Shown here: positions 886-14,257 of the stretch, in pieces | How positions within the stretch are numbered: the first letter of the stretch is position 1 | Layout of the letters: each line of letters begins with the position of its first letter | IMG/VR virus record: IMGVR_UViG_2703718832_000008 | Location: 1 to 16,991 of that record | DNA: 16,991 bases | Strand: one strand, 5' to 3' | Source of the DNA: a virus | Lineage: Duplodnaviria; Heunggongvirae; Uroviricota; Caudoviricetes | The notes under the pieces: model-generated | Told to the model about the DNA's origin: nothing | The model's database searches: none | The model's input: the letters and a program-made list of their open reading frames with translations, nothing else | Position numbers and translations under genes: made by a program

Positions 886-909
886 GGTCACTCCCTTTGT
901 GACACCTAT

Positions 910-946
910 AAAAAAGGCGCTTCCCCATGCCGAGTAGCGCCTTTTT
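910..946 (-). terminator. Bidirectional intrinsic terminator hairpin (probable fis terminator)
   Basis: Perfect 11-bp inverted repeat AAAAAGGCGCT (911-921) / AGCGCCTTTTT (936-946) around a 14-nt loop, with an A-tract on one side and a T-tract on the other; lies just downstream of the fis stop-codon remnant when read on the minus strand. Confidence 0.7.
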
Positions 947-970
947 AATCAAGCATTTAGCTAACCTGAA

Positions 971-988
971 TTAGTTCATGCCGTACTG
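971..988 (-). other. fis: Remnant of the fis 3' end (Y-G-M-N-stop) marking the chromosome/island junction; putative attachment-site core
   Basis: Minus strand reads TGA CAG TAC GGC ATG AAC TAA. The last four codons plus stop match the Fis C-terminus (...KKYGMN) as I recall it, but an in-frame stop sits immediately upstream and the sequence beyond 988 is unrelated AT-rich DNA. Confidence 0.6.
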
Positions 989-1115
989 TCATATTAGCTG
1001 TTTTCATGCTTTTAGATGATTTTAATATTCATATAATAATCAATGTGTTGTATAAATTCATGCCTGTATATTGTTCCAGTGTTTTTCTTTGTTTATGCTA
1101 TTATGCAAGCAATTC

Positions 1116-1137
1116 TGTATAAACATTTGTATAAACA
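1116..1137 (+). repeat. Two direct copies of TGTATAAACA, 12-bp period, 20-40 bp upstream of int
   Basis: TGTATAAACA at 1116-1125 and 1128-1137 within the AT-rich int leader; possible integrase arm-type or regulator binding sites, or promoter elements. Confidence 0.35.
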
Positions 1138-1155
1138 CTTTGGGCTGGGTGGTCT

Positions 1156-2379
1156 ATGGCTGGCGAACTTAACAAACTGAGCGACAGGAAGTTAAAGGGA
1201 TTACATGGTATCCCGGCCAGTAAGATTGAGTTCTATGCTGATGGTGCCGGGCTGAGCGCCAAGGTAACGAAAGCTGGTGGTATTAGCTGGGTGTTTACTT
1301 ACCGACTCGACGGGCAGAAGCTGCATCGTCTTACTCTGGGACGATACCCGGATATGAGCCTCAAAGAAGCCCGTTCTTCGCGTGATAAATGCCGCCAATG
1401 GCTGGCCTCAGGTAAAGATCCAAAGCACCAGTTGGCGCTGGCCACTCAGGAAACGCTTAAACCGGTCACTGTTAAGGAAGCTATAGAATACTGGATACGC
1501 GAATATGCAGAAGAGAACCGCGCGAATGTTGAACGGCACAAAGCGGAGCTGCGAAAACACATTTATCCTTATATAGGGAAAATGGCGCTCGCTGACTGTG
1601 AAACACGATACTGGCTTGACTGCTTTGACAGGATGAAAAAGAAAACTCCAGTCGCCGCAGGTTATGTGTTCCAGATGTGCAAACAAGCCCTGAAATTCTG
1701 CCGGGTTCGTCGCTATGCTGTGAGTACCGCGCTTGAAGATTTAACAATTCCAGATGTCGGTAAAAAACAGGCAAAAAAAGACCGGGTATTAAACGATAAA
1801 GAGGCTGGCGATTTATGGGCTGCCATTTCCTCTGGCACTTGCTTCATGCCTTACTACACCAGGCTACTGACAATCTTAATGGTGTTTGGGTGCCGAACGC
1901 AGGAGGCCAGGCTATCAGAGTGGAGTGAATGGGATATGGATGCCTGGGTCTGGACAGTTCCCAAAGAGCACAGCAAGGGCGGCGAGAAGATTGTAAGACC
2001 TGTGCCGGATGCCATGCGCAAATTCATTGAAATACTGCATGATGAAACGAAACTATCCGGTCTTTTGCTTGGGTCGGTTAAAGGCAGTGAAGCGGTAAGC
2101 CAGTGGGGCCGTAGCGTTTATAAAAAGCTGGGACATTCTGAACCATGGACACTGCACGATCTAAGACGAACATTAGCAACGCATATGAATAATATGGGTA
2201 TAGCACCACACGTTGTTGAACAGTTGCTGGGGCACTCAATGCCGGGAGTCATGGCGATTTATAATCGCAGCCTGTACTTGCCTGAGAAACTGGATGCGCT
2301 GAATAAATGGTATGACCGTCTCGATATTTTGGCGGGTAATCACTCGAATATTGTTATTTTAAAGGCTGGTGAGAAATGA
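1156..2379 (+). CDS. int: Tyrosine site-specific integrase, P4-like family
   Basis: 407 aa; N-terminal arm-binding-like region, C-terminal catalytic region with HDLRRT and LLGHS...AIYNRSLY motifs (R..HxxR..Y catalytic pattern); GGGTGG ribosome-binding site upstream; placed at the island edge. Confidence 0.95.
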   Translation: MAGELNKLSDRKLKGLHGIPASKIEFYADGAGLSAKVTKAGGISWVFTYRLDGQKLHRLTLGRYPDMSLKEARSSRDKCRQWLASGKDPKHQLALATQETLKPVTVKEAIEYWIREYAEENRANVERHKAELRKHIYPYIGKMALADCETRYWLDCFDRMKKKTPVAAGYVFQMCKQALKFCRVRRYAVSTALEDLTIPDVGKKQAKKDRVLNDKEAGDLWAAISSGTCFMPYYTRLLTILMVFGCRTQEARLSEWSEWDMDAWVWTVPKEHSKGGEKIVRPVPDAMRKFIEILHDETKLSGLLLGSVKGSEAVSQWGRSVYKKLGHSEPWTLHDLRRTLATHMNNMGIAPHVVEQLLGHSMPGVMAIYNRSLYLPEKLDALNKWYDRLDILAGNHSNIVILKAGEK

Positions 2380-3164
2380 AAAAGATAAATAAAATGACCG
2401 ATTTGCCGAAATGGTTTTCATTGGACAATTACAATTCTATCAATGGGCTGAGTGATCTTGATTTAATTAATCAGTTAGCTATGAGAATGGAAGTTGCTAA
2501 TGATGATTTTGAATGGCTTGATACCTATCCCGGAGCAAGAAATGAGTTCGCTTCATTTATGGAAGAAAGATTTAGTAACCCAATTCGGCCGCTGAGCGGA
2601 AAATTATTTGCAGAAAAAATAAAAAGAAAAAAATATTCTGAATGGCAAATGGATTCCGTCGGAGGTGTTGAGCCTTTAAGATTAATTGATGTGATGCAGT
2701 TGTCTAAGAAAGCCGCTCATTATATTGATGAAAATAAAATTAATCGCTCATTGCGTGGACAAAAAAGGTCTGTAAGTAAGACCATAAGCGATAATGATCA
2801 AATGCACATTACTTTAGATTTGTCTTGGCCTGATGAAATTTTATTAAGCGATTTGGCTGCATTGTTGCCAATATGGCGAATGGATCTTGAAAGGAAAAGT
2901 GAAAATAGTTGTAAGTTAAGTAATAGCTGGAGTGTAATCAAAAAGAAAATATTCGATTACAAGATATTGCCAATGTTAGACCTTATGGAGTGGGCTAAAA
3001 TTAACAATGCAACAATCACTAACAGAGTTTTATCTTTGGCCCTATTTCCTAATGCAGAGTATGACGCCATTGGTATCGCTCAAACGATCAAACCGTTCAT
3101 TAGAAATTTTTCCGCAGATTTTTCTATAGAAATATTAAAGCGCAAAGCTATGGATTCATTTTAA
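2376..3164 (+). CDS. Hypothetical protein, AT-rich accessory gene translationally coupled to int
   Basis: 262-aa ORF whose ATG overlaps the int stop (ATGA). Visibly lower GC than the flanking genes, with several A-tracts. No recognisable catalytic motif by eye. Confidence 0.65.
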   Translation: MKKINKMTDLPKWFSLDNYNSINGLSDLDLINQLAMRMEVANDDFEWLDTYPGARNEFASFMEERFSNPIRPLSGKLFAEKIKRKKYSEWQMDSVGGVEPLRLIDVMQLSKKAAHYIDENKINRSLRGQKRSVSKTISDNDQMHITLDLSWPDEILLSDLAALLPIWRMDLERKSENSCKLSNSWSVIKKKIFDYKILPMLDLMEWAKINNATITNRVLSLALFPNAEYDAIGIAQTIKPFIRNFSADFSIEILKRKAMDSF

Positions 3165-3267
3165 TCGGGAAATCCATATAGAAATAATTAAAAATTATCT
3201 AATAGTGAACCATGCTTTTTAATAGCAAATAATAGCCTCCACAAAACGTAGAAACAGTGGAGGCAAC

Positions 3268-3552
3268 ATGCAAAATATCACCTTTACCCCGCCAAATCCT
3301 GAGCAGCGCCGCACCCTTTTAGAAGAGTACGGCTTTAAGTTCGACCGTCGAATTCGTGAAGAAGAATGTAGCGAGATCACCAGCCTTTCCCGTTCCAGCC
3401 GCTGGAAAATGGAGCAGCAAGGTCGATTCCCGCCACGCTGCCACTTTGGTCGTAACAGCTGCGCCTGGCTTCTTTCTGATGTGCTCTGGTGGGTTCGTAA
3501 TCCGCCTGCAGTAGAGAACGTCAATAACCCGTACAGCCGCAAATCTGCTTAA
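3268..3552 (+). CDS. alpA: AlpA-family phage transcriptional regulator (excisionase-like helix-turn-helix)
   Basis: 94 aa; region RIREEECSEITSLSRSSRWKMEQQGRFPPRCHFGRNSCAWLLSDVLWWV matches the AlpA/Vis-type helix-turn-helix as I recall it; GGAGG ribosome-binding site at 3259-3263. Confidence 0.88.
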   Translation: MQNITFTPPNPEQRRTLLEEYGFKFDRRIREEECSEITSLSRSSRWKMEQQGRFPPRCHFGRNSCAWLLSDVLWWVRNPPAVENVNNPYSRKSA

Positions 3553-3572
3553 TTAACTACAGGTAATAGAAT

Positions 3573-4379
3573 ATGGAAAAAATAACTGCCTTGGCTGGCA
3601 GCGGCCAAACTCAATCCGAAACCAGCCAGAAAGATATTTCCAGCGATAATTTTGCTGCGCGAATCCCTGTAACCATGAGCAAGATTGGCGGGAAAGAAAC
3701 CCAGTCTGTAAGCGGACGTAAGCTGCATACGTTTCTGGCTGTAGGGCGAGACTTTACCACCTGGATGAAAGCACGCATCAAACAGTATGGGTTTGTTAAA
3801 GGGGTTGATTATGTAATTGTTGAAGATTTGAGCACCCCAAAACGGGGGAGCGCAAAATCTCGCCAACAAGTCGAGCACGATTACATTGTTAGCCTGAATA
3901 TGGCTAAAGAGCTTTCTATGGTTGAGCGCAACGCGCAAGGCAAGATGGCCCGCCAGTATTTCATCGACTGTGAAGAACGTCTGCGCCGCGTAGCACCAGA
4001 GGAACATGAGGCGGCGTTGTTGGGCTGGCGTAAAAATCGTGTAGCTGCCTGCGAAGATCATAAGAGTATGGCCGATGCAATGAAGGGCTATATCGAGCGC
4101 ACCGGCGACAGGCAGCACGGCTTTGCCTACAGCAATGAATGCTCGTTCCTGAATAGCCTTGTGCTGGGTATGCACCCGCGAGTGTGGGCGAAACAGAAAG
4201 AAATCCCGGTTAAGCAGGTGCGTGACCATATGAACGCCGATCAGCTCGCGCTGCTGGCTTATCTGGAAAGCCGTGATTGTGCTCTGCTGGATCTTGATAC
4301 CCGTACAGCAACCCGTAAGGCGAAACTCACCGAACTGGCACAACGCTGGCTGGTGAAGCGTGTTGGAGGTGCTGAGTGA
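3573..4379 (+). CDS. Phage antirepressor-like protein (AntA/AntB N-terminal domain)
   Basis: 268 aa; segment SGRKLHTFLAVGRDFTTWMKARIKQYGFVKGVDYV fits the AntA-domain pattern (LH.FL.V...F..W...RI..YGF..G.DY). Only 20 bp downstream of alpA, so probably co-transcribed. The start could instead be the internal Met at about 3675. Confidence 0.7.
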   Translation: MEKITALAGSGQTQSETSQKDISSDNFAARIPVTMSKIGGKETQSVSGRKLHTFLAVGRDFTTWMKARIKQYGFVKGVDYVIVEDLSTPKRGSAKSRQQVEHDYIVSLNMAKELSMVERNAQGKMARQYFIDCEERLRRVAPEEHEAALLGWRKNRVAACEDHKSMADAMKGYIERTGDRQHGFAYSNECSFLNSLVLGMHPRVWAKQKEIPVKQVRDHMNADQLALLAYLESRDCALLDLDTRTATRKAKLTELAQRWLVKRVGGAE

Positions 4380-4539
4380 TTTTGCATAACTCAATCAGGG
4401 TTGCGCAGAATTTGAGCAGGCGAAATTCGCACGCGCAAATCAAGCTCGGTGATATGCCGAGTTTGAACAACCGCGTACGTTTAACGTACGGACATCGCAA
4501 CCCATTGAATCAATTTGATTATAACGAACCGTTAGAATT

Positions 4540-4730
4540 GGCGAGCAACAAACACGAACAGTATTCGGGTTCGCCTGAACATCAACACTGCTTAGGTTCG
4601 GCAATCATCTTTAAAGGATGTATCAAGGAAAATCAACAACGTGCAGTTGAGGTTCCAACGAATAACGTAGAGAGCTGCAATGGCAGCGCATTTTTGCTCT
4701 ACGAGGGAAATCAACAACGTACAGTTTTGT
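4540..4730. repeat. Four degenerate direct repeats (~30 bp units, consensus roughly ATCAACAACGTGCAGTTGAGGTTC) in a noncoding region
   Basis: Related units start near 4547, 4581, 4631 and 4710; the two best copies are AAATCAACAACGTGCAGTT (4629-4647) and AAATCAACAACGTACAGTT (4708-4726). Two CGTACG palindromes lie just upstream at 4472-4488. No convincing ORF on either strand. Confidence 0.5.
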
Positions 4731-4860
4731 ACCGTAATCCAAATTTGGCTTACGAGAGGGTAGTACCTCAAAGCCACCAGGTTAACCACGCCGCCAAAAG
4801 ATATGCGGAAAACAAACCCTCTTTAAGAGGGGGAGTCCAGCGTTTGTGCGGGTCATTATG

Positions 4861-4892
4861 TCCTGCGCAAAACAACCCCGAAATTATCGGGG
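4861..4892 (-). terminator. Intrinsic terminator for the minus-strand RHH gene
   Basis: 6-bp stem CCCCGA/TCGGGG with 5-nt loop (4876-4892), followed on the minus strand by TTGTTTTG; sits about 30 nt downstream of the RHH stop. Confidence 0.55.
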
Positions 4893-4923
4893 CAGTCCAC
4901 AGCATTACGGGGAGTAACCCTGT

Positions 4924-5115
4924 TCAGCCTTTTGGCTCGATGCCTTGTCGCAAAAGTTCTTTACGGGCAAGAGCCTTTAGCCAATTGCCAAGGCTCACGC
5001 CTTCCCGGCTGGCAGCCTCATTTAGCTGCTGGCGTAGTTCGGGTGTTATGCGGATCTGGAAGGTCGGTGACAAACCTTCACCTTTCGGAGTTTTATCTCT
5101 TTTGATAGTTGACAT
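4924..5115 (-). CDS. Small ribbon-helix-helix (Arc/CopG-like) DNA-binding protein, putative island regulator
   Basis: 63 aa starting at the internal ATG (5113-5115) with an AGGAG ribosome-binding site upstream on the minus strand; segment FQIRITPELRQQLNEAASREGVSLGNWLKALARKEL has the beta-strand/helix-helix pattern of RHH proteins. The N-terminal extension to 5229 in the ORF track looks non-coding. Confidence 0.6.
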   Translation of the reverse strand: MSTIKRDKTPKGEGLSPTFQIRITPELRQQLNEAASREGVSLGNWLKALARKELLRQGIEPKG

Positions 5116-5163
5116 GTACGTACGTAATCTCCTACTATGGATTCTGTTATGTACGTACGTTAT
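5114..5163. promoter_or_regulatory. Two 15-bp operator-like palindromic sites ATGTACGTACGT[A/T]AT in a divergent control region
   Basis: Copies at 5114-5128 and 5149-5163, centres 35 bp apart; the first contains the perfect 10-bp palindrome TACGTACGTA. They lie between the divergently oriented RHH gene and the HNH-AP2/primase operon. Confidence 0.5.
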
Positions 5164-5444
5164 CACGGCGCATGTAACAAAAGCAACGCCCCGGAGTGCG
5201 GGAACACTGCCGAGGCGTCTAACCACCAACGTTAATAGGAGTAACGCTATGGCTATGCCGCAGTGTAACCAAACTCATCCTAAAAATCGCGTATTTATCT
5301 TTTTGGCTTTAAATCGTGCCGACATGCAGAGCAGGCCACATCGTGAAGTTATTACCGCCGTCAGTGAGCGGGAAGCACGTAAGCTGCTAGTTGGCCGTTT
5401 TATTTTGGTTTTTGCAGGACGCTTACCAGCCAAGGAGATTTATC

Positions 5445-5954
5445 ATGGCTAAATTAACCAATAAATATTTAAAAGAAATTTTAGAATACAGCCCAGAATC
5501 TGGGGTGTTTATTTGGAAAGTTTGTCGTGGTACTACAAAGGCAGGGGATATAGCTGGCAGTATCAAAGTAAGAGGGTATTTAGATATTAAGATTAATAAG
5601 AAGCTATATAAGGCTCATAGGCTCGCATGGTTTTATATGTATGGAGTTTGGCCCGCTAATCTAATTGACCATATTAATGGTAATCGCAGTGATAATCGGT
5701 TGTGTAACTTGCGAGAGGCCACTCACAAAGAAAATTGCAGAAATCAAAGGATGTATAAAAATAACAAGTCAGGAGTAAAGGGAGTTAACTGGAATAAAAC
5801 AGGAAGAAAATGGCTGGCTGCGTGTGCTGTTGACGGGAAAAGATATCACCTAGGAATGTTTGAAGATATTTCAGAAGCAGAGAAAACTATTAAAGATTTT
5901 CGTGAGAAATATCATGGGGAATTCGCCAAGCATGAAGTGACCGGGGAGTTATAA
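5445..5954 (+). CDS. HNH endonuclease with C-terminal AP2 DNA-binding domain (homing-endonuclease-like)
   Basis: 169 aa from ATG 5445 (AAGGAG ribosome-binding site 7 nt upstream). HNH_3-type motif HRLAWFYMYGVWPANLIDHINGNRSDNRLCNLREAT, then AP2-like SGVKGVNWNKTGRKWLAACAVDGKRYHLGMFEDISEAEKT. Visibly AT-rich compared with downstream genes. Confidence 0.8.
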   Translation: MAKLTNKYLKEILEYSPESGVFIWKVCRGTTKAGDIAGSIKVRGYLDIKINKKLYKAHRLAWFYMYGVWPANLIDHINGNRSDNRLCNLREATHKENCRNQRMYKNNKSGVKGVNWNKTGRKWLAACAVDGKRYHLGMFEDISEAEKTIKDFREKYHGEFAKHEVTGEL

Positions 5955-5955
5955 A

Positions 5956-6150
5956 ATGCGTGAGCCAATCTGTCTGGAGCAGGCCGAATATAAATCAGCG
6001 CTGGCTTCATCACTTTACGAAACCATCCTGGAAAAAGCCTCTGCTGAATGTTCAGAAACGCTGCTGAATCTGATTTCTATTGCGTGTGATTTTAATCAGG
6101 AAATTCACCGGGCATTAATCGCCGAGCTGCACATGGGAGAGACAAAATGA
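5956..6150 (+). CDS. Hypothetical small protein (64 aa)
   Basis: ATG immediately after the upstream stop, with GGGGAG ribosome-binding site; first of three tightly coupled small ORFs leading into the primase gene. Confidence 0.5.
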   Translation: MREPICLEQAEYKSALASSLYETILEKASAECSETLLNLISIACDFNQEIHRALIAELHMGETK

Positions 6151-6353
6151 GACAGGTTCCTTTTGAGGTCCTGATGCACGCCGAAGACGCACTGGCATAC
6201 AGCAATCAGGCTCTGGCTATGCTGGAAATCTGGATGGACTCCCTCGGCGAAGGTGATGAACACGAATCTAACTGTGTGGCCGCCATTTTCAGCCTGGTGC
6301 ATGAGTCCAAAGATCGTCTACAGAAAGCGCGGGAGGCTTCCAGTGCAAAATGA
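6147..6353 (+). CDS. Hypothetical small acidic protein (68 aa)
   Basis: ATGA start/stop overlap with the previous ORF; GGGAGAG ribosome-binding site. Confidence 0.5.
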   Translation: MRQVPFEVLMHAEDALAYSNQALAMLEIWMDSLGEGDEHESNCVAAIFSLVHESKDRLQKAREASSAK

Positions 6354-6597
6354 CTTTGTAAGCGATGCGCGGCACGGGAAGCGCGGAGAGTTCAAATTGC
6401 CGCTGTTTTGTGAACTGACTGCAGAAGGGCAGAGTCACATCACCTTTGCCCTAAAGTTTGCCCCCGAGTCTGTGGCTGTGTTCCATCCCGATTCGGGAGA
6501 AATATCTCACTGGCTCAGCCGCGGAAACGAGATTATCGACATTTACGGTTGCTATGCCGTCTTTCCTCGCAATGGCATTAGGGAGGAACAGCAATGA
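6343..6597 (+). CDS. Hypothetical small protein (84 aa, GTG start)
   Basis: GTG at 6343 preceded by GGGAGG 6 nt upstream; overlaps the previous stop and ends in an ATGA overlap with the primase start. The ORF-track start at 6253 would run inside the previous gene and has no ribosome-binding site. Confidence 0.45.
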   Translation: MQNDFVSDARHGKRGEFKLPLFCELTAEGQSHITFALKFAPESVAVFHPDSGEISHWLSRGNEIIDIYGCYAVFPRNGIREEQQ

Positions 6598-9284
6598 GCC
6601 GCGCAATTGAGATTATCCGTGAAGTTAAGCGCCGAGCTGCCGGAAGCTGGGAAAGCCTACTTCCTCAGTGCGGGGTGACGGTTCCGCCGAAAGGCCGTCA
6701 CGGCCCATGCGCCATCTGTGGTGGATCTGACCGATTTCACTACATTGACGACCACGGCGGCGGCGAGTGGCATTGTCGCCAGTGTGACGAGCCAAATCAC
6801 GGCGACGGTCTGGATCTCATTGCCAGATCTCAGGGCATTACCATAACCGCTGCGGCGCAGAAAGTATCCTCTGTGCTGGGTGTTGATGCCCGGACACCGG
6901 AACCGAAGCCAGCCAGAGAGAAGCCTCAGACGGATATCGCCGGGAAAGTTGCGGCGCTGGTTGCTAAAGCCTCTCCGGGGCAGTCTGCTTACCTTGCATC
7001 AAAGGGGCTTCAATGCCCCTTCCCGATGCTGTCCGATGGGTCGCTGCTGCTGGTGCTGAAAAACGGTGCTGGCGCGACGACAGGCGCACAGGTGATTAAG
7101 CCAGATGGCAGTAAGCGGCTGGTGGCCGGAACGGTAAAGAAAGGCTCTTTTTGCGTGGTTAATTCCGGTGAAACGCCGGAGACGGTGATTATCGCCGAAG
7201 GACTGGCAACGGCGCTTTCGGTTCAGCAGTTTCGCCCAGATGCGACAATTATCACAGCGATTGACGCCGGGAATTTGCTGTCAGTTGCGCAGGTGATGCG
7301 ACAGCGTTACCCGGATGCGCAGATCATCATCGCCGCAGATAACGATATTAAGCCTGGCGAACCAAACACGGGTAAATCAGCCGCAGAAAAAACCGCTAAA
7401 GCTGTCTCTGGCTGGGTAGCTTTACCTCAGTCTGAGGAAAAGGCCGACTGGAATGATTTTCACCAGCAACACGGGCTGGAAGCAGCCGCAGCAGCATTTA
7501 ATGATTCGATGTACCAGCCGGAGGGCGAAAAGGTGGTGGTAAAACTTAAGTCTATTGACGGCGGTAAAAAAGAGCAAAAATCAGCTCTGCAAGGTGACGA
7601 ACTGAAACCACGCGTGGAGAGCCGTAACGATGGCTTGTACTGGATTACGCCAAAGGTGGACAAGGACAGCGGAGAAATCATCAATAACGAAGCGTGGCTT
7701 TGTTCGCCTCTTGAGGTAGTTGGTTCAGGTAGTGACGGGGCAGAACGCTATCTTGTTTTGCGCTGGCGTTCGCCGCGTGGCCACGAAGATATTACCAGGG
7801 CGATCCCTTGCGCTGATGTTGGAGAGCGTGAGGGATGGCGCTCACTTAAAGCTGGAGGGGTTAACGTGACCACTAAAAACACCTTTCGTGCCATTCTGGC
7901 CGATTGGCTGCAGCAGTGTGGATCTGGTCAGGAATGGATTATCACTCATACCACTGGCTGGCATAATGGGGCATATATCATGCCTGATGGCGAAGTTATT
8001 GGTGATCCAGAGACACCCATTCTCTTTAATGGTCGCAGCGCTGCATCTTCCGGTTATGCCGTTTCTGGTACGGCTGAGGGCTGGCGGGATTCAGTGGCTT
8101 ATCTGGCCGGTGGCAACCCATCAATGATGCTGGGAGTGGCGGCGGCATTATCCGCGCCGCTTATTGGGCTGGTGGGTGCTGATGGTTTCGGTGTCCACTT
8201 GTTCGAGCAGTCGAGCGCCGGTAAGACCACTACAGCTAATATTGCGAGCAGTCTGTGGGGAGAGCCGGATGCTCTGCGCCTAACGTGGTACGGTACTGCG
8301 CTTGGTATCGCTAACGAAGCGGAGGCGCATAACGACAGTCTGTTACCGCTGGATGAAGTGGGGCAGGGGAGCAGCGCCAAAGACGTTGCCACTTCGGCAT
8401 ACACCTTGTTTAACGGTGCTGGAAAGCTGCAGGGAGCCAAAGAGGGCGGCAATCGGGAGTTGAAACGTTGGCGCACTGTAGCAATCAGTACCGGGGAAAT
8501 GGATATCGAGACGTTTCTTTCTGCTGGTGGGCTAAAAGTTAAGGCAGGCCAGTTGGTTCGCCTGCTGAATATCCCTATGGAGAAATCGACGGCCTTTCAT
8601 GGCCTGCAGAACGGCAAGGCTCATGCTGATGCACTGAAGCAGGCATGGATTGAAAATCACGGTGCAGCGGGCCGAGAGTGGGTTAAATGGTTGGCGGCTC
8701 ACCAGAAGGAAGCTAAACAGGCCGTACATGACGCCCAGACGCGCTGGCGCGGACTCATTCCGGCTGATTATGGCGAGCAGGTGCACCGCGTGGCAGAACG
8801 CTTTGCAATCCTTGAAGCTGCGCTGGTGACTGGTGCATCAATCACCGGATGGGATGAACAGGCCAGCCGTGATGCTATCCAGCATAGCTTTAATGCCTGG
8901 GTGAAAGAGTTCGGAACGGGAAATAAAGAGCACCAGCAGATCATCGAGCAGTGCGAGGCGTTTCTTAATGCTTATGGTCTGAGCCGGTTCGCCCCTTTGC
9001 CTTATGATCCTGCAAGCCTGCCAATCAGTAATCTTGCCGGGTATCGTAAGCGTAAGAGCAACCATGATGATGCGCCCATGGTGTTCTATACATTCCCTGC
9101 AACGTTTGAGAAGGAGATAGCGCAGGGATTTAATGCTAGGCAGTTTGCCCGTGCGCTTGCCGCTGCCGGTTTGCTCTCTGAGCCATCAAGTGGGAGAGGA
9201 TATCAACAGAAATCACCGCGAATTGATGGGCGCCAAATCAACGTTTATGTACTTCAACAAGTTGCAGAAGAAGGGGCGGAATAA
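6594..9284 (+). CDS. Primase-helicase (zinc-ribbon + TOPRIM primase + P-loop NTPase domains)
   Basis: 896 aa. N-terminal Cys/His cluster (CAICGG...HCRQC); TOPRIM-like IIAEGLATALS and IIAADND; Walker A SSAGKTT and Walker B-like LLPLDEV in the C-terminal half. Sits immediately upstream of the iteron origin. Confidence 0.9.
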   Translation: MSRAIEIIREVKRRAAGSWESLLPQCGVTVPPKGRHGPCAICGGSDRFHYIDDHGGGEWHCRQCDEPNHGDGLDLIARSQGITITAAAQKVSSVLGVDARTPEPKPAREKPQTDIAGKVAALVAKASPGQSAYLASKGLQCPFPMLSDGSLLLVLKNGAGATTGAQVIKPDGSKRLVAGTVKKGSFCVVNSGETPETVIIAEGLATALSVQQFRPDATIITAIDAGNLLSVAQVMRQRYPDAQIIIAADNDIKPGEPNTGKSAAEKTAKAVSGWVALPQSEEKADWNDFHQQHGLEAAAAAFNDSMYQPEGEKVVVKLKSIDGGKKEQKSALQGDELKPRVESRNDGLYWITPKVDKDSGEIINNEAWLCSPLEVVGSGSDGAERYLVLRWRSPRGHEDITRAIPCADVGEREGWRSLKAGGVNVTTKNTFRAILADWLQQCGSGQEWIITHTTGWHNGAYIMPDGEVIGDPETPILFNGRSAASSGYAVSGTAEGWRDSVAYLAGGNPSMMLGVAAALSAPLIGLVGADGFGVHLFEQSSAGKTTTANIASSLWGEPDALRLTWYGTALGIANEAEAHNDSLLPLDEVGQGSSAKDVATSAYTLFNGAGKLQGAKEGGNRELKRWRTVAISTGEMDIETFLSAGGLKVKAGQLVRLLNIPMEKSTAFHGLQNGKAHADALKQAWIENHGAAGREWVKWLAAHQKEAKQAVHDAQTRWRGLIPADYGEQVHRVAERFAILEAALVTGASITGWDEQASRDAIQHSFNAWVKEFGTGNKEHQQIIEQCEAFLNAYGLSRFAPLPYDPASLPISNLAGYRKRKSNHDDAPMVFYTFPATFEKEIAQGFNARQFARALAAAGLLSEPSSGRGYQQKSPRIDGRQINVYVLQQVAEEGAE

Positions 9285-9308
9285 AATACACATGTGAGGA
9301 TTGTTATT

Positions 9309-9601
9309 GTTGGTTCAGTTGGTTCAATGATTGTTAATTACATTCATGTTACTGTTTTACATAGGGTTTATGTCTAATAATTGAACCAACACTGAACCAA
9401 CAAACGGCTATTTTGAACCAACATGTTCCGCTATTGAACCAACCCCCTTTTCTGGCTGGCCTGTAAATATTTGCCACTGAACCAACATAAAAATAGCATT
9501 TGTTGGTTCAAAAAGGGGCTTTGTTAGTTCACTTAATGAAAATAATGCCTTTAAAAACAATAATCTTTACAAATTGAACCAACTGAACTGACTGAACCAA
9601 C
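9309..9601. repeat. Replication origin: iteron array of TGAACCAAC (about 7 direct and 3 inverted copies) plus AT-rich stretch
   Basis: Direct copies at 9382-9390, 9393-9401, 9414-9422, 9435-9443, 9478-9486, 9575-9583 and 9593-9601; inverted copies GTTGGTTCA at 9310-9318, 9319-9327 and 9502-9510; AT-rich segment 9538-9573. Located directly downstream of the primase-helicase gene. Confidence 0.75.
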
Positions 9602-9638
9602 ATAGTTTTGCATCTATACACAAAAAATAGAGGATGTT

Positions 9639-9941
9639 ATGGACAAAAAAAGCAGTGATGACCTGGTATATTCGAAGGTGCTGATCCAGAAAGTGGTTGA
9701 GCACAAAGATATGTTTGGGGTTCCAGACAGCAAAACGGATTTGCAGCTTATGCCGCTTAGCGAATACCGGGAACTGGTGAAGCGAGAAGCTTTCTTTTTT
9801 GTGGATCACAATGGTTTCCTGCGCCATCAATTTTCTGGTGATGTTATGGCTGCCAGCAAAGAACAACTGGATATCCTTATCGGCGAATTGAAAGCGAAGC
9901 GTGAGCTGCTTGATGATGCTCTGGATTGCGCTAAGGAATAA
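9639..9941 (+). CDS. Hypothetical protein (100 aa) downstream of the origin
   Basis: ORF with GAGGA-like ribosome-binding site; acidic, helical-looking C-terminus; no recognisable family by eye. Confidence 0.5.
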   Translation: MDKKSSDDLVYSKVLIQKVVEHKDMFGVPDSKTDLQLMPLSEYRELVKREAFFFVDHNGFLRHQFSGDVMAASKEQLDILIGELKAKRELLDDALDCAKE

Positions 9942-9978
9942 TTTTGTAAATTATTTGTACTCATGTTTACCCGTGATT

Positions 9979-10003
9979 ACCCCTGTCTCTGATGGGGGTT
10001 TTC
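9979..10003 (+). terminator. Weak intrinsic terminator candidate
   Basis: CCCC/GGGG stem with 10-nt loop followed by TTTTCTTT, about 40 nt after the preceding stop codon. Confidence 0.3.
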
Positions 10004-10173
10004 TTTATATTTTTCATGTATATCTTGAAGAGTGGCACTCAGACGTGAGCCGCCACTGGCCGTTAAGTCAAGCTGTAGCGAGTACAGCCTGCGAGAGGCA
10101 GAAAAAGATTTAACGGCCTCCCCTCCAAGCGCTGGTTTCACGTCTCTACGTTAATTGATACGGAAACCACTCC

Positions 10174-11340
10174 ATGAAGAAACTACTCGAATTACGCCAG
10201 CAGAAAGCCGCACTCAAAACACAGATGCGTTCCATGCTGGACAAAGCCGACACCGAAAAGCGCAGCCTGAACGAAGAAGAGGGCAAAAAGTTCGACGAAC
10301 TCCGCGCCCAGGCTGATGCGCTTGAAGTTGAAATCACCCGCCTTGAAGCCGTCGCCGACGATCAGCGCAATCTGCCTGGTACTTCCGTCGAAGGTGAGCC
10401 AGTAAGCAACGACGAGCTGCGCCACTACATCATGACAGGTGATACCCGTTCTCTCTCCACGCTGGTGCAGGCTGACGGCGGTTATACCGTTATCCCTGAG
10501 CTGGACAAAGAGATTATGCGCCAGTTGCAGGATGATAGCGTGATGCGTTCCATCGCAACGGTGAAGACCACCAAAACCAACGAATACCAGAAGCTGGTAT
10601 CTGTGGGCGGCACTACTGTTAATCGTGGTACCGAAGGTGAGGCACGTACCGAAACCAGTACGCCGAAGATGGAGCGCGTTGATATCAAACTCAACCCGAT
10701 CTACGCCTACCCGAAAACCACTCAGGAGATTCTCGACTTCTCTGAGGTGGACATTCTGGGCTGGCTGTCTTCTGAAATCGCCGACACCTTCACCGCTACC
10801 GAAGAGAGCGACTTTGTGAACGGCGACGGTGATAAAAAATCCAAAGGGTTCCTGTCTTACCCTCGCGCTGTCACTGCCGACAAAACCCGTCCGTTCGGTA
10901 CGCTGGAGAAGATGGAGGCGGCTGACGTTTCCTCTGATGGCCTGATCGACCTGCTGTATAAGCTGAAAGCCAAATACCGCAAAAACGCCGTATGGGTGAT
11001 GAACTCCAACACCGCCGCCAAACTGCAAAAGCTGAAAAACGGCAACGGAGATTACATCTGGCGCGATCGTCTGGTTGCCGGTTCTCCCGATACGCTGCTG
11101 GGCCGTCCTGTTCAGTATCTGGAAACCATGCCGGATGCGGATGCAGGTAAAGCGTTCCTCGCGGTAGGCGACTTCAAGCGCGGCTATTTCATCGTGGATC
11201 ACACCACTGGCGTGCGTACCCGTCCTGACAACATCACCGAACCGGGTTTCTACAAGGTGCATACCGATAAGTACCTGGGCGGCGGTGTGGTGGACTCCAA
11301 CGCCATCAAGGTGCTTGAGCTTTCAGGCTCCGGTTCCTGA
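10174..11340 (+). CDS. Major capsid protein, HK97 fold, with N-terminal coiled-coil (delta/scaffold-like) domain
   Basis: 388 aa; N-terminal roughly 100 residues are charged and coiled-coil-like, the remainder resembles HK97-family major capsid proteins; the long antisense ORF 10192..11262 is a shadow. Confidence 0.92.
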   Translation: MKKLLELRQQKAALKTQMRSMLDKADTEKRSLNEEEGKKFDELRAQADALEVEITRLEAVADDQRNLPGTSVEGEPVSNDELRHYIMTGDTRSLSTLVQADGGYTVIPELDKEIMRQLQDDSVMRSIATVKTTKTNEYQKLVSVGGTTVNRGTEGEARTETSTPKMERVDIKLNPIYAYPKTTQEILDFSEVDILGWLSSEIADTFTATEESDFVNGDGDKKSKGFLSYPRAVTADKTRPFGTLEKMEAADVSSDGLIDLLYKLKAKYRKNAVWVMNSNTAAKLQKLKNGNGDYIWRDRLVAGSPDTLLGRPVQYLETMPDADAGKAFLAVGDFKRGYFIVDHTTGVRTRPDNITEPGFYKVHTDKYLGGGVVDSNAIKVLELSGSGS

Positions 11341-11350
11341 TTTGACGTTT

Positions 11351-11372
11351 AAGGGGCTGCGGCCCCTTTTTG
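11351..11372 (+). terminator. Intrinsic terminator/attenuator immediately after the capsid gene
   Basis: GC-rich hairpin AAGGGGC-TGCG-GCCCCTT followed by a T-run, 10 nt after the capsid stop and 20 nt before the protease start. Confidence 0.6.
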
Positions 11373-11391
11373 CCCTCTGTGGAGTCCAGTA

Positions 11392-11952
11392 ATGAAAACA
11401 ATTGATTTTGAAATCCGTACTTCCGAAGTGAGCGCCAGCAACAAAAAGCTGGTGGGCTATGCCGTGCGCTGGAACAGCCTGTCAGAAGTTATCTGGGATG
11501 AGTTCCGCGAACAGTTTGCGCCGGGAGCGTTTAAAGACAGCCTGGCATCCGGTAGCGATGTGCGTGCGCTGTATGAGCATAACTATACCCAGCTGCTGGG
11601 CCGCACTAAATCCGGCACGCTGGTGCTGTCCGAAGACGATACCGGGCTGCGCTTCGAGCTGACTCCGCCGAATACCCAGCTTGGCAACGATGTGCTGGAG
11701 CTGGTGGAGCGCGGGGATATCTCCGGCATGAGCTTTGGTTTCCGGGCGCTGAAAGAGGCGTGGGATATTGCTCAGTCTCCATATCTGCGCACTGTTACCG
11801 CTGCCGAACTGCGGGAGATTACCGTTACCTCTATGCCTGCTTATCCTGAGTCTGGCGTGGAAATCGCGCACCGTTCGCTTTTCTCCCAACATCCTGAACT
11901 GCGCCGCGCTGGCGATAACCGTCGCCGCTGGGCTGATTTAGCGGGGCTCTGA
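11392..11952 (+). CDS. Prohead protease, HK97 family
   Basis: 186 aa; resembles HK97-family prohead proteases (segments ALYEHN...LLGRT and LRFEL); GGAG ribosome-binding site. Confidence 0.9.
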   Translation: MKTIDFEIRTSEVSASNKKLVGYAVRWNSLSEVIWDEFREQFAPGAFKDSLASGSDVRALYEHNYTQLLGRTKSGTLVLSEDDTGLRFELTPPNTQLGNDVLELVERGDISGMSFGFRALKEAWDIAQSPYLRTVTAAELREITVTSMPAYPESGVEIAHRSLFSQHPELRRAGDNRRRWADLAGL

Positions 11953-11953
11953 T

Positions 11954-13189
11954 ATGTGGAATATCTGGCCGTTTGGCCGTAAGTCTGAACCCTCAGAGCA
12001 GCGCAGCATGACCATTGATGAATTTCTGGCGATGGCAGGGATTCCAAATACCGGATCAGGCGAGTATGTGTCTGCGGGTACTGCGGAATCTCTGCCGGCG
12101 GTCATGAACGCCGTATCAGTTATCAGTGAGGCGGTGGCAACAATGCCCTGCTATCTCTACCGCGTCCGTAATGATAATGGTCGTGAGGCGCGAGAATGGC
12201 TGAGTAATCACCCGGTGGATTTTCTCCTGAACGAGCAGCCGAACGACTGCCAGACGCCTTATCAGTTTAAACGCACGATGATGCGCCATTGTCTGCTGAA
12301 TGGTAACGCCTATGCGGTGATCCAGTGGGGCCGCGACGGCCAGCCGCAATCCCTGCACCCGTATGCGCCGGGGGCGGTTGTTCCTGAGCGTATCGGCCAG
12401 CATAAGTACAAATACACCGTTACAGAGCCGTTTACCGGGGCTGTGCGCACCTATCTACAGGAAGAGATTCTGCACCTGCGTTACTCCACCGATGATGGCT
12501 TTCTGGGGCGTTCGCCTATTACTACGTGCCGTGAGGCGCTGGGGTTAGGTCTGGCCCAACAGCGCCACGGTGCCAGCATTATGAAAGATGGCATGATGGC
12601 GGCGGGCGTCGTCACTACTGCTGAATGGCTCGACAGCGTGAAGGGTAAGCAGGCTCTGGACGCACTGGAGCGCTACAAAGGTGCCAGAAATGCCGGGAAA
12701 ACGCCGATCCTTGAAGGTGGCATGGACTACAAGCAGCTTGGCATGAGCAATCAGGATGCCGAATGGCTGGCGTCGCGCCGGTTCTCCATTGAAGACATTG
12801 CCCGCATGTTCAACGTGTCGCCCATCTTCCTGCAGGAATACAGCAACAGCACCTACAGCAATTTCAGCGAAGCGAGCCGCGCCTTTCTCACCATGACCAT
12901 GCGCCCGTGGCTGGCGAACTTCGAGCAACAAATCAAATCTGCTTTGCTGGTGGCCTCTCCGGTTCCGGGAACCCGTTATCAGGTGGAGTTTGACTCTGCT
13001 GACCTTCTCCGTGCCACACCTACCGAGCGTTACGCCACTTATGAGCGAGGCATTAAGAACGGGATCATGAACCCGAACGAAGCCCGTGAGCGCGAGGGGA
13101 TGCCGCCGCGTGAAGGTGGTGACGAATTCAGCCAGGCATGGAAGCAGGAAGTGAAGATCAGCAAAGACGGCAAGGAAGGTGACGCATGA
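11954..13189 (+). CDS. Portal protein, HK97 family
   Basis: 411 aa; start 1 nt after the protease stop; size and sequence character consistent with HK97-type portal proteins. Confidence 0.9.
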   Translation: MWNIWPFGRKSEPSEQRSMTIDEFLAMAGIPNTGSGEYVSAGTAESLPAVMNAVSVISEAVATMPCYLYRVRNDNGREAREWLSNHPVDFLLNEQPNDCQTPYQFKRTMMRHCLLNGNAYAVIQWGRDGQPQSLHPYAPGAVVPERIGQHKYKYTVTEPFTGAVRTYLQEEILHLRYSTDDGFLGRSPITTCREALGLGLAQQRHGASIMKDGMMAAGVVTTAEWLDSVKGKQALDALERYKGARNAGKTPILEGGMDYKQLGMSNQDAEWLASRRFSIEDIARMFNVSPIFLQEYSNSTYSNFSEASRAFLTMTMRPWLANFEQQIKSALLVASPVPGTRYQVEFDSADLLRATPTERYATYERGIKNGIMNPNEAREREGMPPREGGDEFSQAWKQEVKISKDGKEGDA

Positions 13190-13524: not shown

Positions 13525-13814
13525 CAGCAGAAATCACCCTGGAAGAAGCAAAGCTGCATTGCCGTATTGATGATGATTATGAAGACACGCTGATACAGGC
13601 GTACATCGATGCGGCGCTGGAGGTTTGCCAGAAGCATATCGGCAAGCGGTTTGATAACGGGCTGGAGTTTACGCCAGCTATCAAGATTGGCTGTCTGATG
13701 TACGTATCTCAGCTGTACGAGTACCGCACGATGATTGGTGATACCGACGCCAAAGAGATACCGATGGCTGTCTCTGCGTTGTGGTCTGTCTATCGTGATG
13801 TGGGGGTGTACTGA
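13521..13814 (+). CDS. gp6-like head-tail connector protein
   Basis: 97 aa; N-terminus ITLEEAKLHCRIDDDYEDTLIQAYIDAA is the usual signature of gp6-like connector proteins; ATGA overlap upstream. Confidence 0.85.
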   Translation: MTAEITLEEAKLHCRIDDDYEDTLIQAYIDAALEVCQKHIGKRFDNGLEFTPAIKIGCLMYVSQLYEYRTMIGDTDAKEIPMAVSALWSVYRDVGVY

Positions 13815-14257
13815 TGCCGTGGCAACCACTACGCCGGTGCAATGAGCCGGGATGTAATAAACGGGTGAAGTCTGGCAAGTGTGACGAGCATAAGCGGGAT
13901 GCCCGCCGACAAAGCGACAGCCGAAGAGGTACGCGAACAGAGCGTGGTTACTCCAACCGCTGGGGCGAATACCGTCGTCATTTTCTAAAAGCTAATCCGC
14001 TGTGTGTCCATTGTCTCAAGGCTGGCGTCTATGCATCGGCAACTATCGTCGATCACATCATCCCTATCGAGGGTGAAGCTGATGTGCTGTTCTGGCCCGC
14101 CAGTAATCACCAGTCGTTATGCGCTGCCTGTCATGGACGGAAGACAACCACAACAGACCCGGTGACGAAGCAGCAGCGTAAAGCCGGTAAGTTCCGCGAG
14201 CAGGAAGAAGCAGCACGTCATCGCACCGACTGGATCTATGAGGCAAACAATGACTGA
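13814..14257 (+). CDS. HNH endonuclease associated with the terminase
   Basis: 147 aa; Cys-rich N-terminus, HNH motif DHIIPIEGEAD...NHQSLCAACH; located directly upstream of terS as in cos-type HK97-like packaging modules. Confidence 0.9.
   Translation: MPWQPLRRCNEPGCNKRVKSGKCDEHKRDARRQSDSRRGTRTERGYSNRWGEYRRHFLKANPLCVHCLKAGVYASATIVDHIIPIEGEADVLFWPASNHQSLCAACHGRKTTTTDPVTKQQRKAGKFREQEEAARHRTDWIYEANND

Follow-up and report, generated by a model that had tools for sequence, protein, structure and literature searches.

In lytic phages, homing endonuclease genes have been studied extensively; they influence recombination there and lead to the exclusion of markers from competing genomes. I-HmuI is an intron-encoded HNH/N nicking homing endonuclease of the Bacillus phage SPO1, and its C-terminal DNA-binding part is helical. 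In phage satellites, homing endonuclease genes have received little attention so far. Genes encoding an HNH domain together with an AP2 domain are a recognised homing endonuclease gene class (Barth, Dunham and Seed 2023, PMC10448857). The NixI protein of the Vibrio cholerae PLE satellites nicks the genome of the helper phage ICP1 and blocks replication (PMC9410903), and an HNH_3-AP2-Bro protein has been described in an E. coli helper-embedded PICI (Mageeney et al. 2023, PMC10111431). In the descriptions of capsid-forming PICIs (cf-PICIs) consulted here, including bioRxiv 10.1101/2022.09.08.507074, the packaging HNH is the only HNH discussed.

Here, I analysed a DNA stretch of 16,991 nucleotides (hereafter the window; IMG/VR record IMGVR_UViG_2703718832_000008). 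A complete ORF on the plus strand at 5445-5954 (ATG at 5445, TAA at 5952-5954) is predicted to encode an HNH_3-AP2 endonuclease of 169 aa. The Pfam HNH_3 family (PF13392) matches residues 55-97 of the protein with 58.6 bits against a cut-off of 24.8 (E 4.7e-16), and the PHROG match is phrog_99, 'HNH endonuclease' (E 4.5e-75). NCBIfam has no family for the protein. The HNH_3 motif is marked by D75, H76, N84, N88, N97, and N100. When the protein was compared with 49 full-length homologs (44-53% identity), H58, R59, D75, H76, N84, N88, R90, N97, and N100 were found to be invariant, and the catalytic residues are thus intact. By phmmer, residues 53-102 align with residues 51-101 of I-HmuI (PDB 1u3e; E 0.0029), the D-H dipeptide and the conserved Asn included. 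The Pfam AP2 family (PF00847) matches residues 109-158 with only 18 bits, which is under the cut-off of 33.3 (E 0.0036). Although the AP2 assignment is below the threshold on this match alone, it was confirmed by the homologs, the structure model, and Foldseek: 42 of the 50 full-length aligned homologs match Pfam AP2 (best E 5.4e-10).

The AlphaFold2 model of the nuclease, built on the homolog alignment, has a mean pLDDT of 94.1 and a pTM of 0.83. Residues 1-50 form N-terminal beta hairpins. The HNH core (strands 73-76 and 89-92, helix 94-99) is modelled with a pLDDT of >90 and has the beta-beta-alpha fold. It is followed at residues 109-160 by an AP2-type sheet and helix (strands 114-117, 122-129, and 132-139; helix 142-160), while the last residue block, the C-terminal tail, has a mean pLDDT of 68. 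In Foldseek searches of the PDB, the top match for the N-terminal two thirds was I-HmuI (1u3e; probability 1.0 over 107 columns). For residues 114-160, the top matches were the plant AP2/ERF structures 7et5, 7et4, and 1gcc, among them TEM1 AP2 and AtERF1, at a probability of 0.99-1.0 with E values of only 0.06-0.19. PADLOC places the nuclease in no defence system and gives only a weak match to a generic 'homing endonuclease' model (E 6.2e-7). As judged from sequence and model together, the sequence-only reading of an HNH motif with an AP2 DNA-binding domain was correct; the protein has an HNH_3 nuclease domain and a C-terminal AP2-type DNA-binding fold. Its further statement, that this is the architecture of free-standing homing endonucleases, agrees with the described HNH and AP2 class (PMC10448857).

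The host element is an E. coli cf-PICI beside yhdJ. The flank at 1-1160 is 99.7% identical to E. coli chromosomes. According to Pfam, the integrase, DUF6387, AlpA, and AntA genes lie upstream of the regulatory region. Downstream of it are the Zn-ribbon/Toprim/DUF927 primase, the major capsid, the prohead protease, the portal, the head completion protein, and the connector, and the packaging genes (PF01844 HNH, TerS, and TerL) come next. The gene set by which a cf-PICI is recognised (int, alpA, primase, capsid, protease, portal, connectors, and hnh-terS-terL) was thus found with no tail genes in between, and the gene order agrees with the published cf-PICI order (bioRxiv 10.1101/2022.09.08.507074). 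On the right, the island ends past or close to the end of the window. The possibility that the gene at 5445-5954 is the packaging HNH was considered and rejected. It belongs to PF13392 and not to PF01844, it lies ~8 kb upstream of terS, and a different gene, at 13814-14257, encodes the cos-packaging HNH (PF01844) immediately before terS and terL.

Several relatives of the island were found in other surroundings. An island near-identical to that of the window (L014; 2 differences over ~10.5 kb, 908-11452) has a yhdJ flank that is ~22% diverged, and its host is therefore probably another species or genus. Another island (L006), 99.9% identical, lies directly behind a phage tail tape-measure gene, and the same island was also found beside other host genes (L005). 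The identity to these three begins near window position 908, at a hairpin (AAAAAAGGCGCTTCCCC...GCGCCTTTTT), which is probably the left attachment site. One further island (L019, 6585-7376) lacks everything from the primase through the portal gene, so that its small early ORFs run straight into the head-completion gene. This is probably a deleted, defective copy. In the window, the C-terminal half of the AntA-family protein encoded at 3573-4379 matches the PADLOC candidate defence model PDC-S22 (E 1.3e-13).

The nuclease gene lies in the early rightward operon, whose order is promoter, icd, HNH, three small ORFs, and primase. A sigma-70-like sequence at 5109-5138 on the plus strand (TTGACA, 18 nt, TACTAT), which is a consensus match only, is the likely promoter of the operon; no other sigma-70-like match was found in 4300-6700. 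The sequence-only reading had placed the nuclease gene at the head of the replication operon. In fact, it is the second gene. It is preceded by an Icd-like gene at 5255-5452 on the plus strand (65 aa; NCBIfam NF033153, E 3.9e-18), a divergent allele referred to here as icd*, whose stop overlaps the start of the nuclease gene by 8 nt (ATGGCTAA). A Shine-Dalgarno sequence AAGGAG, read from the sequence at 5432-5437 on the plus strand, lies within the icd coding sequence, 7 nt before the nuclease ATG. The next gene downstream is a conserved gene of 64 aa (phrog_35285; 5956-6150, plus strand), and the last gene of the operon is the primase/replicase (6594-9284, plus strand), with Zn-ribbon, Toprim, and DUF927 domains in Pfam.

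On the minus strand, at 4924-5115, a gene of 63 aa encodes a protein of the ribbon-helix-helix type (HicB/YlcI-like; Pfam HicB, E 4e-5; NCBIfam YlcI_YnfO_N, E 3.8e-6, which is under the cut-off). It was also called in two sister islands (L007 and L011), and this divergently transcribed gene is probably a regulator. An ORF of 358 aa at 4376-5452 was considered as a gene and rejected. Its only family match is in the last 65 codons (Icd-like), some gene callers split it, and the minus-strand gene lies inside it. This ORF is a long-open-frame artefact, though it is present in several public gene calls. The leader between the promoter-like site and icd (5180-5256) is ~80% conserved even where the icd of an island does not align, and it holds a hairpin. 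Rfam gave nothing at the gathering threshold; for the conserved leader (5182-5256), there were only sub-threshold matches to symR (27.6 bits, minus strand) and R1162 antisense RNA (24.5 bits, plus strand). The leader may be a regulatory RNA or an operator.

The nuclease gene had been described as AT-rich relative to the primase operon, and this is borne out. Its GC content is 0.371 (GC3 0.329), against 0.547 for the primase and a mean of 0.509 for the 510-nt windows of the island, which gives z = -2.2 and places it within the lowest 5%. Its neighbours have intermediate values (icd 0.460, the 64-aa gene 0.456), and the rest of the operon has 0.52-0.55. There is a second AT-rich gene in the island. 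The DUF6387 gene at 2376-3164, with a GC content of 0.342, is the most AT-rich gene of all; it follows the integrase gene and has no PADLOC match. Since the sister islands carry unrelated genes of 216, 309, or 186 aa in the same place, this position is another variable accessory slot.

Is the nuclease gene a constant part of such islands? Among 5,426 complete E. coli genomes, 11 match the 2-kb region, and none of these 11 covers the HNH gene. The match starts exactly at window position 5956 in three of them, and in the annotation of three matching genomes, icd is followed directly by the 64-aa gene. In the assembly collection, the exact 64-aa protein was found in 2,733 index blocks and the exact HNH protein in 302. 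Ten contexts of the 64-aa gene are listed from the 2,733 blocks. In all ten, the HNH gene is absent and icd overlaps the 64-aa gene by 8 nt (ATGCGTGA), and the tblastn matrix agrees. For all HNH-less islands, the BLAST homology to the window ends near 5235 and restarts at 5956, exactly at the ATG of the 64-aa gene. The icd alleles are not alignable at the DNA level, and the breakpoints were taken from BLAST and from direct reading of the junctions. These results show that the nuclease gene is optional and is carried by a minority of islands. The sequence-only reading had suggested comparing related islands for the gene at this position. It is missing at the site in 10 of the 10 listed islands with an identical 64-aa gene and in 11 of the 11 matching genomes. 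Far from being universally present and syntenic without an insertion scar, the gene is commonly absent, and its junctions look like those of a precise insertion.

In the HNH-less islands, the junction reads ...GGAGG-N-CATGCGT(G/A)AGCC. This includes an island (L041) with an icd allele closer to icd* (...GGGAGGTGTGTCATGCGTAAGCC), which has the same CATGCGT(G/A)AGCC as the common icd allele. In the window, ...AAGGAGATTTATCATG is followed directly by GCTAAA at the 5′ junction, and ...GGGGAGTTATAAAATG is followed directly by CGTGAGCC at the 3′ junction. With both variants of the nuclease stop taken together, the 3′ junction is GGGGAGTTA(T/A)AAAATG followed by CGTGAGCC. The 3′ end of the insert (5943-5958, plus strand) contains a Shine-Dalgarno sequence GGGGAG (5943-5948), 7 nt upstream of the ATG of the 64-aa gene (5956-5958), and the nuclease stop lies one base before the same ATG. 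The simplest reading is a precise insertion of ~511 nt after a shared ATG, with the neighbours left intact. The junctions show that the putative insert occupies the position of the ribosome-binding site and ATG of the 64-aa gene and, at its 3′ end, provides replacements for both. A flanking direct repeat marking transposition was not found at the junctions; the sole elements repeated at both are the ATG and the Shine-Dalgarno pattern.

The differing unit between the islands is icd plus HNH and not HNH alone. The icd* product shares 42% amino acid identity with the Icd-like protein of the HNH-less islands, and every exact or 95% icd* that was found adjoins the HNH gene. A look-up of the exact icd* protein returned 24 contigs, all 24 with HNH and none empty. 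An exact 31-nt icd* pattern gave one metagenome match, with HNH, and zero matches in viral contigs. Protein-pattern scans of viral contigs and species-representative genomes for icd* without HNH returned only relatives of 48-65% identity. A protein homology search with icd* found one 95% relative and one 71% relative, and of these only the 71% allele (L041) is without HNH. More distant alleles of the icd* clade without HNH are thus the 71% allele and three alleles of 57-65% identity (L008, L009, and L027). I infer the empty site from these more distant icd alleles; an HNH-less island with the same icd* allele was not found in these searches. Deliberate recoding of icd was considered and rejected. 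In the VFAGRLP stretch, every one of the seven codons has a different third position in the two alleles, which is too weak a sign at 42% overall identity. The strongly different icd allele next to the gene would be compatible with an immune flank.

The 90% cluster of the nuclease contains forms of 169 aa and 172 aa, in E. coli, Citrobacter portucalensis, and Klebsiella pneumoniae records. No relatives of the nuclease between 55% and 93% identity were found. The 172-aa form has AAA in place of the TAA of the window (5952) and reads on to the TGA of ATGCGTGA. Since this form occurs in several backgrounds, the stop codon of the window is probably derived; it costs three residues of the C-terminal tail, where the confidence of the model drops. 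An allele that is 93% identical lies at the same site next to the 95% icd*, and the islands concerned differ from the window in regulator allele and primases. By the Nei-Gojobori method, the window gene and this allele have 24.5 synonymous and 12.5 non-synonymous differences. The resulting dN/dS of ~0.11 (0.01-0.03 in the AP2 part) indicates that the protein is maintained by purifying selection. The gene has been kept through ~8% nucleotide divergence in E. coli, Citrobacter, and Klebsiella records. Such selection is equally expected whether the nuclease is selfish and active or domesticated and useful.

A block of ~1.06 kb (4898-5954), consisting of the regulator gene, the promoter, icd*, and the HNH gene, is shared with 1-2 differences among three otherwise different backgrounds. 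Two islands (L012 and L015) are identical to the window over this block except for 1-2 positions, while the upstream sequence is 11% diverged or unalignable. The regulator gene at 4924-5115 is part of the block that is identical between island backgrounds. The islands that carry the block differ among themselves, with three kinds of primase and two attachment sites. In L015, divergence restarts 16 nt past the nuclease stop, and in L012 it restarts further right; the block edge thus coincides with the end of the HNH gene in one of three comparisons. Homing endonuclease genes tend to sit at genetic-exchange boundaries (PMC10448857), and the resemblance of the edge in L015 to this tendency is suggestive only. 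The 64-aa protein is also 100% identical across many island backgrounds. Since the islands are mosaic everywhere, the shared block alone does not show nuclease-driven spread. The nuclease lineage was seen at one site only, with no sign of recent movement to new sites.

Other HNH_3 genes were found in the same cf-PICI family. L015 has a second HNH_3-AP2 gene (4894-5637; 174 aa, 51% identical) between antA and the minus-strand regulator gene, and the corresponding site in the window (4561-4891) is 330 nt in length and empty. Three islands (L036 at 11732-12344, L037, and L040) have an HNH_3 gene of 187 aa (29% identical) between the capsid and protease genes. For its start, it uses the ATG and ribosome-binding site of the protease gene itself, and the first ~20 protease codons are re-coded and AT-rich. 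This site is also empty in the window (11341-11445; protease ATG at 11392). Thus, at least three HNH_3 genes occupy variable sites in the cf-PICI family, which amounts to recurrent colonisation. Outside the satellites, T1-like phages of Salmonella, Escherichia, and Klebsiella encode relatives with ~50-55% identity, which are annotated as HNH or homing endonucleases. Their genes are often direct neighbours of the large terminase gene, and a single genome has them in as many as 5 places. In lambdoid prophages, genes for relatives of ~52% identity lie in the nin region and in the early-left operon, where they are tightly packed, with stops and starts that overlap.

I consider it somewhat better than an even chance (about 0.55) that the gene encodes a free-standing homing-type endonuclease, with an I-HmuI-like HNH/N module and an AP2 part, and that it is an insert of ~511 nt in the early rightward operon of a cf-PICI. 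Upon de-repression of the island, the gene would be co-transcribed and translationally coupled with icd. The protein would bind a long specific site via the N-terminal hairpins and the AP2 domain, and would then nick one strand like I-HmuI, or cut both. As its preferred target, it would recognise the corresponding HNH-less locus of a related satellite that shares the cell, probably in or next to the common icd allele. Through recombinational repair, the rival satellite might then acquire a copy of the HNH gene along with the neighbouring icd* cassette. As for the suggestion of the sequence-only reading that the gene is a selfish insertion, its optional presence, AT-richness, and precise junctions speak in favour. 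On the other side, no empty site with the same icd* was found, and the purifying selection is fitted equally by a domesticated nuclease.

It is possible, if rather unlikely, that the nuclease is such a domesticated effector, with which the satellite nicks the DNA of its helper or of a competing phage or satellite during induction. NixI is a satellite-encoded I-HmuI-like HNH/N nickase with exactly such a role (PMC9410903), and homing-endonuclease-related domains have repeatedly been co-opted in phage-satellite conflicts (PMC10448857). The position of the gene within an induction-activated operon, the strong purifying selection (dN/dS 0.11), and the retention of the gene despite ~8% nucleotide divergence in E. 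coli, Citrobacter, and Klebsiella records are what may be expected of an effector. However, NixI is a conserved PLE feature, while the gene studied here is found in a minority of islands, its full-length product is closest to ordinary phage homing-type genes, and PADLOC offers only the weak match to the generic 'homing endonuclease' model (E 6.2e-7). The minority distribution also bears on a role in the island's own housekeeping, in which the protein would nick island DNA at or near the replication origin or act as an AP2-type regulator of the early operon. Replication and persistence do not depend on the gene in most sister islands, which lack it, and it accompanies three different primase types. 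Its operon position, with the regulatory genes on one side and the primase on the other, the AP2 part as the most conserved part (dN/dS 0.01-0.03), and the repressor activity known for some homing endonucleases such as I-TevI (PMC10448857) would suit a regulator, but the fully conserved catalytic residues argue for more than a DNA binder. I regard a housekeeping role as improbable.

An inert passenger, that is, a once-mobile homing endonuclease gene that is no longer functional and is kept by linkage to the icd* cassette, is also improbable, and slightly more so. The strict linkage to one icd allele, the single site, and the derived premature stop of the window copy, which drops the last 3 residues, are consistent with it. 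Against it, the dN/dS is 0.11, the ORF is full-length in both diverged alleles, and all catalytic and near-invariant family residues are intact; the lost residues belong to the C-terminal tail, in the last block of the model with a mean pLDDT of 68. A bolder version of the role in conflict is doubtful, though much less so than the housekeeping and passenger explanations. In this version, the nuclease may serve as a weapon in the competition of one satellite with another or with the helper. It would nick the early-operon region of rival HNH-less cf-PICIs, or a helper phage, at co-induction, exclude the rival, and drag the linked regulator-promoter-icd* segment into it. If this were true, homing endonucleases would drive the exchange of control modules among phage satellites, as a third layer of parasitism.

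As things stand, the identification of the nuclease gene is a routine annotation refinement. One Enterobacteriaceae cf-PICI family has HNH_3 genes at three variable sites, and the window copy is intact and maintained by selection. Provided that they are active, these HNH_3 genes could be part of the reason why control and replication modules are exchanged in a mosaic fashion among satellites, and they would also provide new long-site nickases.

How does the homing-type endonuclease proposed here compare with the known systems? The cos-packaging HNH known from HK97-like phages and cf-PICIs is a further HNH nuclease of the same island, but it belongs to PF01844 and lies next to terS/terL. I-HmuI of phage SPO1 (1u3e) is the best solved-structure match by both sequence and fold. 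The D-H and Asn residues align, and the proteins are 174 and 169 aa in length. In contrast, the identity is only ~26%, I-HmuI is intron-encoded, and its C-terminal DNA-binding part is not AP2, while the window gene is free-standing and has an AP2 fold. The HNH_3-AP2-Bro protein, compared here by its description, likewise combines HNH_3 and AP2 in a Gram-negative PICI, between integration and replication genes, but it has extra Bro-network segments that are absent from the window nuclease. NixI, also compared by description, is likewise a satellite-encoded I-HmuI-like HNH/N nuclease that is expressed during satellite induction. NixI differs in being conserved among PLEs, with demonstrated anti-helper nicking and a short recognition motif, whereas the window gene is optional and much nearer to phage homing-type genes. 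The free-standing HNH and AP2 genes of phages have the same two domains and the same length, with ~50-55% identity over 90-95% of the protein. They are tightly packed between genes and sporadically distributed, with several copies and sites per genome family. From these, the window gene differs in that it has no closer phage relative, belongs to one tight cluster (at least 93% identity), and resides in a cf-PICI satellite.
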